Below the pieces are notes generated by a model. The model searched no databases. It was not told where the DNA came from and worked only from the letters and a program-made list of their open reading frames with translations. From IMG/VR virus record IMGVR_UViG_3300044712_000786, positions 32,001 to 96,000 of that record: a stretch of DNA of 64,000 bases; one strand, written 5' to 3'. Positions 49,220 to 57,353 of this stretch are shown in pieces. Position 1 is the first letter of the stretch. Every line of letters begins with the position of its first letter. The DNA is from a virus. Taxonomy: Duplodnaviria; Caudoviricetes. Position numbers and translations under genes: made by a program.

Positions 49220-49366
49220 TCAGATAGTATCAGTCTTTTTTGAATTGTCAATATCTGCTTTAGCCGCTCGCCTTTCGGCTTTAGCCACCTTGCGCTTATT
49301 GTAAGGCCGAAGATGTTTCCACCACTCGGGAGATTTTGTCAGGGTGTCTTTTCTTTTGTGCGCCAT
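49220..49366 (-). CDS. 48-aa basic peptide (not in ORF track)
   Basis: MAHKRKD...EWWKHLRPYNKRKVAKAERR; own promoter. Confidence 0.65.
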   Translation of the reverse strand: MAHKRKDTLTKSPEWWKHLRPYNKRKVAKAERRAAKADIDNSKKTDTI

Positions 49367-52884: not shown

Positions 52885-53090
52885 ATCTTATCAATAAAGT
52901 ATTCTGCTACGGAAAACGCTACACAATCATCCCCCCCATAAATGGGGACGGGAAAACGTGCATAAGTTAATTGAATTACGTATGAATTAAGATTCTTATC
53001 GCGAGGCGGATGAAAACGCGCTATAACTCTTCCTTCAAATCCAGTTATTGTCTTAACTACATCGCCGATTTTGAATTTATATGTTCTCAT
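52881..53090 (-). CDS. SH3/KOW-like small protein
   Basis: YKFKIGDVVKTITGFEGRVIA; own promoter. Confidence 0.65.
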   Translation of the reverse strand: MRTYKFKIGDVVKTITGFEGRVIARFHPPRDKNLNSYVIQLTYARFPVPIYGGDDCVAFSVAEYFIDKI

Positions 53091-53126
53091 GCCTTGATAC
53101 TATCAGGTCTTTTTGAATTGTCAAGA

Positions 53127-53215
53127 TGGTACCAACGACTGGATTCGAACCAGCAAGGCTTTTAATGGCCGAGGGATTTTAAGTCCCTTGTGTAAACCAA
53201 TTCCACCACGTTGGC
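53127..53215 (-). tRNA. trnL: tRNA-Leu (anticodon UAA), CCA encoded
   Basis: GCCAACG/CGTTGGT acceptor, AGGGA-CTTAAAA-TCCCT anticodon arm, long variable arm, GTTCGAATC T-loop, ACCA end. Confidence 0.93.
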
Positions 53216-53221
53216 AAAGAC

Positions 53222-53409
53222 AGCGCGATGGCGGATTCGAACCACCGACCTATGAAGCTTCTGGCCTCATTGCTCTGGGATTTAGGCAAGTTGTTAACGA
53301 CCCACCATTTACCCCATCCCCACTAGTATACAGCGCACGCAAGCCTTATTCTAGAATTATCTCTATTGCACGCCTTAAACCGTCGAATGAACCGCTGAGC
53401 TAATCGCGC
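53222..53409 (-). ncRNA. tRNA-shaped gene with 114-nt D-loop insertion and enlarged anticodon loop
   Basis: GCGCGAT/ATCGCGC acceptor; GCTCAGCGGT[53390..53277]AGAGC D-arm; ATGAG-GCCAGAAGC-TTCAT arm; AGGTC variable region; GGTGG-TTCGAAT-CCGCC T-arm. Confidence 0.75.
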
Positions 53410-53410
53410 A

Positions 53411-53678
53411 TAAATTCTAGGCTATTAGACTTGCTCCGCTTAGTTATGTATTCCTAAGCATTCTAGCTTCGGGAATTACCCGTCATTATCTAATTCTTTC
53501 CCGCCGAAGGAACAGACAGCATTAACGTAGCTGCCTACACGTTCGAAATTCTGATTGACTTGCGGGGGGTTAAACATAAGCAAGGTAGCTACTCCTCACT
53601 CATGCCGCTTATAGTCGGGATTCCTCCCAATGGGTCTACCCGATTCGCCAGCCGCCAATCAAAGCTGACTTGCTAGCT
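53411..53678 (-). ncRNA. Candidate structured RNA B, 5' of the tRNA cluster
   Basis: Promoter (-35 53707-53712, -10 53685-53690) with no ATG at +1; multiple hairpins with GNRA/UUCG loops. Confidence 0.5.
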
Positions 53679-53715
53679 AAATTGAATCTACCAAACTTTT
53701 TTCAGAAGTCAAGCT

Positions 53716-53856
53716 TTAGACTTCGGTATAAGCTACGGTAATATCTACAACCCCATTGCCATACTTCTTCTTAGCTTTCTTTTCAGCTGCATTGTGGGAG
53801 CCAGCTTTAATCAAAGCTATCTCAATTCCATTACAATAAACAATATAGGTCTTCAT
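53716..53856 (-). CDS. 46-aa hypothetical protein (not in ORF track)
   Basis: TAATG coupling; MKTYIVYCNG... Confidence 0.55.
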   Translation of the reverse strand: MKTYIVYCNGIEIALIKAGSHNAAEKKAKKKYGNGVVDITVAYTEV

Positions 53857-56484: not shown

Positions 56485-56739
56485 AAAAAACCCCGCCAGT
56501 TTCCCAGCGGGGTAAATACCCTTGGTTCAGGTCATGACTCCCGAAGCAAGGTTATCTCAGGCAGCATCCAAGGCGAGATATCCAACATCGCCTTCATGGG
56601 TTAGCCGTTGGCGGCTGGGTCTGCCATATTGAAAATGATGGGTGGTTCAGCCCGAGTCTCTACAACCTAGGTCAATGGCCACTTCCCTAGAATTGCTGCA
56701 TGGTTTCAACAGCCGATTTATGCTATCTTTGCGCCACCC
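56485..56739 (-). ncRNA. Candidate structured RNA C
   Basis: Promoter (-35 56768-56773, -10 56746-56751), +1 GGGTGG pairing with CCACCC, nested hairpins, terminator 56485-56513, no ORF over 21 aa found. Confidence 0.55.
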
Positions 56740-57062: not shown

Positions 57063-57353
57063 AAAAGGACCCCCGACAGGGTAATTACTCCCATCGGGGG
57101 TTTTGGCCTATCTATCTTTGCGCGAAGACCTTTCAGCCAGTGTTATTAGGCGTTTTCTCGCCCGTCCATTCCCCTCATAACGCATCGAGCTAAGGACGCT
57201 ACGGCATCGCGGGTTATCTTTCGGACTTTTCTCTTCACAGTGCGGCAACCATGACCTTCAGGAAGTTTTTTGTTTGCATTTTAACAAGAACCTATAGTGC
57301 TCTCATCGGGCCGCTAGAGAATCATATCTCGTTTCCCATGCCATTGCTGGCAC
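57063..57353 (-). ncRNA. Candidate structured RNA D
   Basis: Promoter (-35 57382-57387, -10 57360-57365), +1 GTGCCA-GCAA-TGGCAT hairpin, terminator 57063-57104. Confidence 0.5.

Follow-up and report, generated by a model that had tools for sequence, protein, structure and literature searches.

The 5′ leaders of tRNA precursors are usually tens of nucleotides long and are removed by RNase P, for which an acceptor stem and a T arm make up the minimal substrate. Phage T4 carries RNAC and RNAD at the distal end of its tRNA cluster, and both are stable, discrete RNAs. They are small RNAs from the tRNA region and their role is unknown (PMC3014915). The GOLLD and ROOL RNAs are often found beside tRNAs, in phages or prophages, and are perhaps co-transcribed with them (PMC5737381). 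ROOL RNAs average 581 nt and GOLLD RNAs are larger; both have multi-junction architectures that are conserved, with covariation across many genomes (PMC5737381).

Here, we analyze a 269-nt leader on the minus strand of a soil phage, within an early region rich in small genes. The phage record comprises 202,704 bp (~203 kb) with direct terminal repeats, and the window, the whole 64,000-nt stretch that was analyzed, covers bases 32001–96000 of that record. An initial annotation had proposed that the leader is a structured RNA comparable to GOLLD and ROOL; it is best read as a tRNA-precursor leader or a co-transcribed RNA of unknown role. Like other bacterial and phage tRNA-precursor leaders, it is promoter-proximal and non-coding, and it abuts a tRNA-shaped substrate with no terminator in between. 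Unlike them, it is long, and it belongs to a phage that fuses nearly every other early promoter directly to its gene. It resembles T4 RNAC and RNAD in being a non-tRNA RNA without a protein product that is apparently co-transcribed with phage tRNAs, but it heads its predicted transcript and its sequence is unrelated to theirs. As with GOLLD and ROOL, it adjoins tRNAs in a phage, a tRNA look-alike and a tRNA-Leu lying directly downstream. In contrast to them, it has 269 nt instead of about 580–800 nt with several multistem junctions and pseudoknots, no relatives and no match to an Rfam model, and its best fold contains one multibranch domain and no supported pseudoknot. Eroded tRNA genes in arrays offer a further comparison: the leader contains T-loop-like heptamers roughly one tRNA gene apart, the last of which precedes an AAUUUAU/G joint, but it has no cloverleaf, T stem or acceptor pairing, and its heptamers are too intact for neutral decay.

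An early promoter is followed by a non-coding leader and two tRNA-type genes

The phage employs a stereotyped early promoter throughout its genome, composed of TTGAC(A/T), an A-run, a 16-nt spacer and TAnnnT. A strict version of this pattern occurs 51 times genome-wide, and in 41 of these copies an ATG is located 6–7 nt past the −10 box, indicating that the corresponding mRNAs are leaderless. The sigma-70-type promoter at 53685–53712 (minus strand) fits this architecture, with a TTGACT, a 16-nt spacer containing an A-run, a TG before the −10 box, and a TAGATT. It sits right after the stop codon of a small upstream ORF, and its placement is kept in the related phage G006. Six nucleotides past its −10 box, where the 41 sister promoters carry their ATG, the sequence instead reads AGC, in agreement with the initial annotation, which had described an early-class promoter without an ATG at +1. 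From the promoter spacing, we infer that transcription starts at the A of this AGC (A53678), the same end coordinate as in that annotation. Other stereotyped promoters without an ATG at +1 are present in the window at 49251 (minus strand), 56058 and 62651; the predicted transcript from the 49251 promoter opens with UAGCUUGC, much like the leader's UAGCUAGC.

The genome is tightly packed, with ORFs of at least 45 aa covering 92% of it and most early promoters fused to an ATG. Between A53678 and position 53410 (minus strand, 269 nt), the RNA strand contains no ORF longer than 35 aa, and this stretch has neither an Rfam match nor a terminator. There is also no terminator before the next feature, and the leader runs straight into the tRNA-type genes. 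The first of them is a tRNA look-alike with a ~100-nt insert (53222–53409, minus strand). Its acceptor stem is 7 bp long, its T arm is standard, and ARAGORN reports it with the intron option only. A tRNA-Leu(UAA) follows (53127–53215, minus strand), identified by both ARAGORN and Rfam (56 bits). Directly past its CCA, the next early promoter (53097–53124, minus strand) drives a leaderless ORF at 53090. The look-alike's first nucleotide, G1, is position 53409, and the leader ends at 53410; the 5′ end annotated initially is thus upheld, whereas its 3′ limit of 53411 was off by one. With the promoter upstream, no credible ORF, and the look-alike and tRNA-Leu directly downstream, the proposal of a non-coding transcript that heads a tRNA unit stands. 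The stretch is real and almost surely transcribed. It is continuous with a tRNA-shaped RNase P substrate, whose acceptor stem and T arm begin at 53409, and its transcription and subsequent cleavage by RNase P are the steps that this arrangement predicts.

Predicted folding of the leader

The leader's minimum-energy fold has a free energy of −83.0 kcal/mol and contains four hairpins with pair probabilities above 0.9, all read on the minus strand. These are a UUGGGA-GGAA-UCCCGA hairpin with a GNRA-type loop (53615–53630, pair probability 0.91), a 13-bp G·U-rich hairpin whose loop AGUAGCUA includes the palindrome UAGCUA (53573–53606, 0.96), an 8-bp hairpin UAGGCAGC/GCUGUCUG with a 9-nt loop (53513–53537, 0.97), and a 7-bp UGCUUAG/CUAAGCG hairpin with a 10-nt loop (53437–53460, 0.93). 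The first two are found in both alternative folds. A 5′-terminal hairpin that begins at +2 (53647–53677, minus strand), pairing GCUAGC with GCUGGC and GUCAG with UUGGC, has a pair probability of 0.75–0.81. It competes with the long-range helix UGAUUGGC/GUCAAUCA, which the initial annotation had proposed to close the domain. That closing helix is possible, and can be extended to 10 bp (UUUGAUUGGC/GUCAAUCAGA), but it is absent from the best fold and forcing it costs 4.9 kcal/mol (−78.1 versus −83.0 kcal/mol).

Most of the hairpins listed in the initial annotation are borne out, and the ensemble contains four robust hairpins, though not every listed one holds. The UUGGGA-GGAA-UCCCGA (53630–53615) and CUUAG/CUAAG hairpins both have pair probabilities above 0.9. 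The GUAG-GCAG-CUAC hairpin, in contrast, is excluded by the more probable 8-bp hairpin at 53537–53513, and the C-UUCG-G loop has its closing pair as its sole pair, as the next would be C·C.

We compared the leader's folding energy to 200 dinucleotide shuffles and obtained a z-score of −1.79; the whole precursor, whose fold mixes parts of the leader with downstream parts, has a z-score of −2.05. Across 76 tiles of the same size and strand between 46 and 62 kb, mostly coding, the mean z-score was −1.25 (sd 1.37), a comparison that is noisy because each tile was scored with 30 shuffles. Coding tiles in the same region reach −4.9. The leader's z-score is near the local tile mean, and consequently its stability does not single it out: it is ordinary for the region and no more than expected by chance.

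Comparison with known RNA families

The leader belongs to no described RNA family. Searching Rfam 15 across the window at gathering scores and across the locus at E ≤ 10, the tRNA-Leu was the only match, and the scanned remainder of the genome yielded tRNAs only. The leader matched neither the GOLLD nor the ROOL model, whether judged by gathering score or at E ≤ 10, and at E ≤ 10 there was no match to a riboswitch, T-box, attenuator, group I intron or self-cleaving ribozyme. The earlier observation that signatures of RNase P, tmRNA and 6S RNA are missing was correct, as Rfam matched none of them even at E ≤ 10.

Several of these candidates were pursued individually and rejected. The type A, type B and archaeal RNase P RNA models, which contain the conserved P4 regions, were unmatched at E ≤ 10; by eye, GGGAGGAAUCCCGAC resembles the CR-I motif, but the strands with which it might pair do not come in the required order and no model matched. 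Neither ARAGORN with default settings nor Rfam identified a tmRNA, and the tmRNA calls returned by ARAGORN under relaxed settings are artefacts that cover the look-alike and the tRNA-Leu instead of the leader, with no tag identified. A 6S RNA had no Rfam match, and the multibranched fold of the leader is unlike the long irregular hairpin with a central bubble of that family. A group I intron associated with the tRNA-Leu(UAA) was likewise without an Rfam match. Elsewhere in the window, a neighboring transcript, RNA D, holds GAGAAAAGUCCGAAAG (57150–57215, minus strand), which by eye is also a reminder of the RNase P CR-I motif; Rfam matched no RNase P RNA across the whole window, RNA D included.

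The locus in related phages

The phage is isolated. Its best terminase relatives are ~57% identical and its best DUF932 relatives are 60–61% identical at the protein level; one of the latter is G006, a complete phage of 208,933 bp and the closest complete relative. A blastn search of 50,697 phage records matched the tRNA-Leu part of the locus and not the leader. Exact words from the leader and look-alike (a 15-mer and two words of 20 and 24 nt) had chance matches or none in IMG/VR, and two 20-mers found nothing in GTDB genomes, or chance matches in coding sequence. The pattern of three spaced heptamers described below was present in more than 119 IMG/VR stretches, mostly tandem repeats and none of them related. 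We also built a covariance model on the leader core (53643–53469, 48 pairs), which found itself alone when run against 640 kb of sequence from the phage and its relatives. By blastn, nhmmer and covariance model, G006 has no match to the leader and five partial relatives gave noise only, and the phage's own genome contains no leader paralogs.

The sequence upstream of the promoter is retained in relatives. The 46-aa ORF whose stop abuts the promoter (53716–53856, minus strand) has a copy in G006 with 71% protein identity and, over 96 nt, 74% DNA identity, and its alignment retrieved 61 metagenome loci. This ORF family, 46–69 aa long (MK.YIVYC...AGSHNAAEKKA; also L200:2227-2433), marks a variable locus. 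Leader-like sequence is absent from all 61 loci. In G006, the same ORF is followed by a promoter in the equivalent position, and the protein gene that this promoter drives is leaderless. Downstream tRNAs are found in 4 of the 61 loci, encoding Lys (L330), Leu-UAA (L344), Arg (L354) and Phe/Phe/Glu (L380), and the tRNA-Leu(UAA) of L344 comes after a protein gene, without a leader. The locus looks like a hot spot where cargo is swapped behind a fixed promoter. As it has no homolog in the relatives and collections searched, the leader module is lineage-specific cargo at this variable locus. For the same reason, covariation speaks neither for nor against a structured RNA; the initial annotation had counted missing covariation support as evidence against its proposal, and this support is missing here by default. 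A private functional RNA is weighed among the readings in the Discussion.

A repeated heptamer and the main tRNA cluster

The heptamer GCAAGUC occurs 10 times in the window, counting both strands, and three of these copies are in the leader. They are located at 53667–53673, at 53557–53563, where AAUCAGAAUUU follows, and at 53428–53434 (all minus strand), which places them 110 and 129 nt apart, and each falls between two helices in the best fold. Some 7-mer is present in three exact copies, as GCAAGUC is, in 1.6% of leader shuffles and in 7.8% of real genome tiles. The heptamer matches the T-loop, UGCAAGU plus the closing C, of four tRNA-type genes in the phage's main tRNA cluster. The third copy resembles the T-loop-to-CCA part of these tRNAs, and 13 nt beyond it, where real tRNA units have 16 nt, lies the joint AAUUUAU/G (53409–53416, minus strand). 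This joint is the 5′ flank common to the main cluster; the look-alike starts with its G as G1, and the RNase P site is expected directly before G53409. The resemblance suggests, as a lead only, that the leader derives from the 3′ end of a tRNA, at least in its own 3′-terminal part. All three leader heptamers are without a T stem and are preceded by an A or C where real T-loops have a U, and neither a hidden Markov model of the cluster's tRNA 3′ parts nor the Rfam tRNA model scored the leader. Neutral decay would hardly spare three heptamers while erasing every stem. Two other origins were rejected: a decayed protein gene, as 9,545 ORFs of this and related phages matched nothing above chance by tblastn, and an internal duplication, as local self-alignment gave p = 0.22.

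The main cluster is located at genome coordinates 136.9–150.9 kb on the minus strand, outside the window (L383:16900-20000 and L384:1-10900), and contains at least 24 tRNA-type units, each of which has an encoded CCA at its end and then AUUU(A)AUG. In eight cases, the AUG opens an ORF of 64–103 aa exactly 4 nt past the CCA; elsewhere, its G is G1 of the next tRNA. Judging by this spacing, the cluster looks like a case of tRNA-punctuated mRNA processing that would yield near-leaderless mRNAs, and it may be a more testable lead than the leader itself. The genes with UGCAAGU T-loops (L384:9057-9098, L384:2939-2974, L384:10875-10915 and L383:16894-16929) put a G at the position of the expected pseudouridine-55 U, which is universal in T-loops, and other units have further odd T-loops. 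ARAGORN calls just 17 tRNAs in the genome, which implies that several units depart from the canonical tRNA, among them Leu-UAG-like, Trp-CCA-like and Leu-UAA-like ones. A stereotyped promoter that lacks an ATG (genome 151273) stands at the head of the main cluster, too. An ORF-free stretch of ~369 nt comes after that promoter (genome 150871–151239, minus strand; L384:10871-11239) and closes with an uncalled Leu-UAG-like tRNA unit that immediately precedes a tRNA-Pro. A second ORF-free stretch, 590 nt long (genome 149584–150173, minus strand; L384:9584-10173), lies directly upstream of a tRNA-Arg; it matches nothing in Rfam, and its folding z-score is −1.1.

Closer to the leader, the promoter-driven non-coding transcripts C (56773) and D (57387) each possess a terminator and resemble genuine RNA genes. 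The leader's UUGGCGGCUGG (53648–53658) is perfectly complementary to CCAGCCGCCAA in RNA C (56604–56614), both on the minus strand. Such an 11-nt match has an expectation of ~0.05 per comparison and 13 comparisons were made, making chance a plausible source. An RNAduplex scan of the leader was uninformative because it pairs whole molecules.

Discussion

Our preferred reading, which we hold with about even confidence, is that the 269 nt are a long 5′ leader of an early tRNA-type precursor with no selected higher-order structure. It builds on the promoter match, the non-coding content, the adjacency to tRNA-type genes with no intervening terminator, and the lack of homologs, all of them observed. 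Host RNA polymerase would start at A53678 from the stereotyped early promoter and transcribe the 269 non-coding nucleotides, then the look-alike, and then the tRNA-Leu(UAA). Cut by RNase P before G53409, this precursor would shed the leader as a by-product that bears a 5′ triphosphate and a 5′-terminal hairpin and is single-stranded and A/U-rich near 53500–53482. Four or five local hairpins would form in the released RNA, as in most RNA of such composition. Its sequence would be lineage-specific cargo behind a positionally conserved promoter, and it may be partly eroded tRNA-array material. Against the plain-leader reading, a 269-nt spacer behind a strong promoter is conspicuous in a packed genome and could be under selection, the terminator-bearing RNAs C and D lie nearby, and the tripled GCAAGUC is matched by few of the shuffles. 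The initial proposal of a structured RNA in the GOLLD or ROOL sense fares worse, given the ordinary stability, the closing helix outside the best fold and the missing homologs. At the equivalent promoter G006 has a protein gene, and L344 has a tRNA-Leu(UAA) without the leader. The leader is not demonstrably a conserved folded RNA.

We consider it possible, if rather doubtful, that the leader is a private functional RNA: a released 269-nt species that is stabilized by its 5′ hairpin and acts in trans. Its three GCAAGUC sites could bind a protein or mimic tRNA T-loops, or the RNA could pair with other phage RNAs through the loop UAGCUA or the 11-nt match to RNA C. A dedicated strong promoter ahead of so conspicuous a non-coding stretch, the sister RNA genes nearby, the four hairpins of high pair probability, one with a GNRA loop, and the placement of each heptamer between two helices all favor such an RNA, and GOLLD and ROOL (PMC5737381) and T4 RNAC and RNAD (PMC3014915) provide precedents. 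However, no collection searched contains a homolog, and hence there is no covariation; the z-score is not an outlier, competing folds are at most 5 kcal/mol apart, and nothing, terminator or otherwise, gives the RNA its own 3′ end. A thrice-repeated 7-mer is also less exceptional among real genome tiles than among shuffles, and about one match like the 11-nt one to RNA C would arise by chance over the 13 comparisons made. A more elaborate version, which we rate as unlikely, would make the leader (B) one of several private early RNA genes together with C and D. Its T-loop-like GCAAGUC modules would engage tRNA-handling machinery or tRNA elbows, and it would serve as a decoy or scaffold with the non-decoding look-alike; complementary loops may in addition let it assemble with itself or RNA C.

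A cis-acting role is improbable in our estimate. The leader would then control the downstream tRNA-type genes, either by timing or gating RNase P or by modulating read-through from upstream early transcription. An 8-bp perfect complement between CUAGAAUU (53420–53413) and AAUUCUAG in the look-alike's insert (53358–53351) points in this direction, as do the whole-precursor fold, in which leader and downstream parts mix, and the uninterrupted path between them. Yet eight-base complements are common in 660 nt, relatives have tRNAs at this locus without such a leader, and no riboswitch, T-box or attenuator matched. It is very improbable that the function lies in the DNA, with the GCAAGTC sites forming a protein-binding array or a recombination joint and the transcript being incidental. 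The three direct heptamers, 110 and 129 bp apart, would suit such an element, as would a swap point behind a conserved promoter with different cargo in relatives; but there is no inverted-repeat or iteron architecture and no AT-rich unwinding region, and elsewhere in the genome the heptamer occurs as tRNA T-loops or in coding sequence. Scarcely credible is a small protein gene, namely the 33-codon ORF inside the leader (53476–53577, minus strand) that opens with the ATG at 53577. Although it has 33 open codons and a GGAG upstream, that GGAG, the nearest one, is 14 nt from the AUG, compared to a Shine-Dalgarno sequence 4–5 nt away in the neighboring gene, and the 13-bp hairpin buries the AUG in its 3′ strand. 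About one-fifth of starts give 33 open codons by chance, and the product has no similarity to ORFs of the phage, of G006 or of the 61 related loci. We judge this ORF spurious.

If the stretch is merely a leader, as in our preferred reading, it is of little importance in itself; the locus nonetheless documents how this phage family swaps protein genes or tRNA modules as cargo behind early promoters of fixed position. Should the leader be stable and functional, it would represent a phage RNA class without relatives and, given its non-decoding look-alike neighbor, it would bear on the ways in which large phages manipulate the tRNA pool or protect it.
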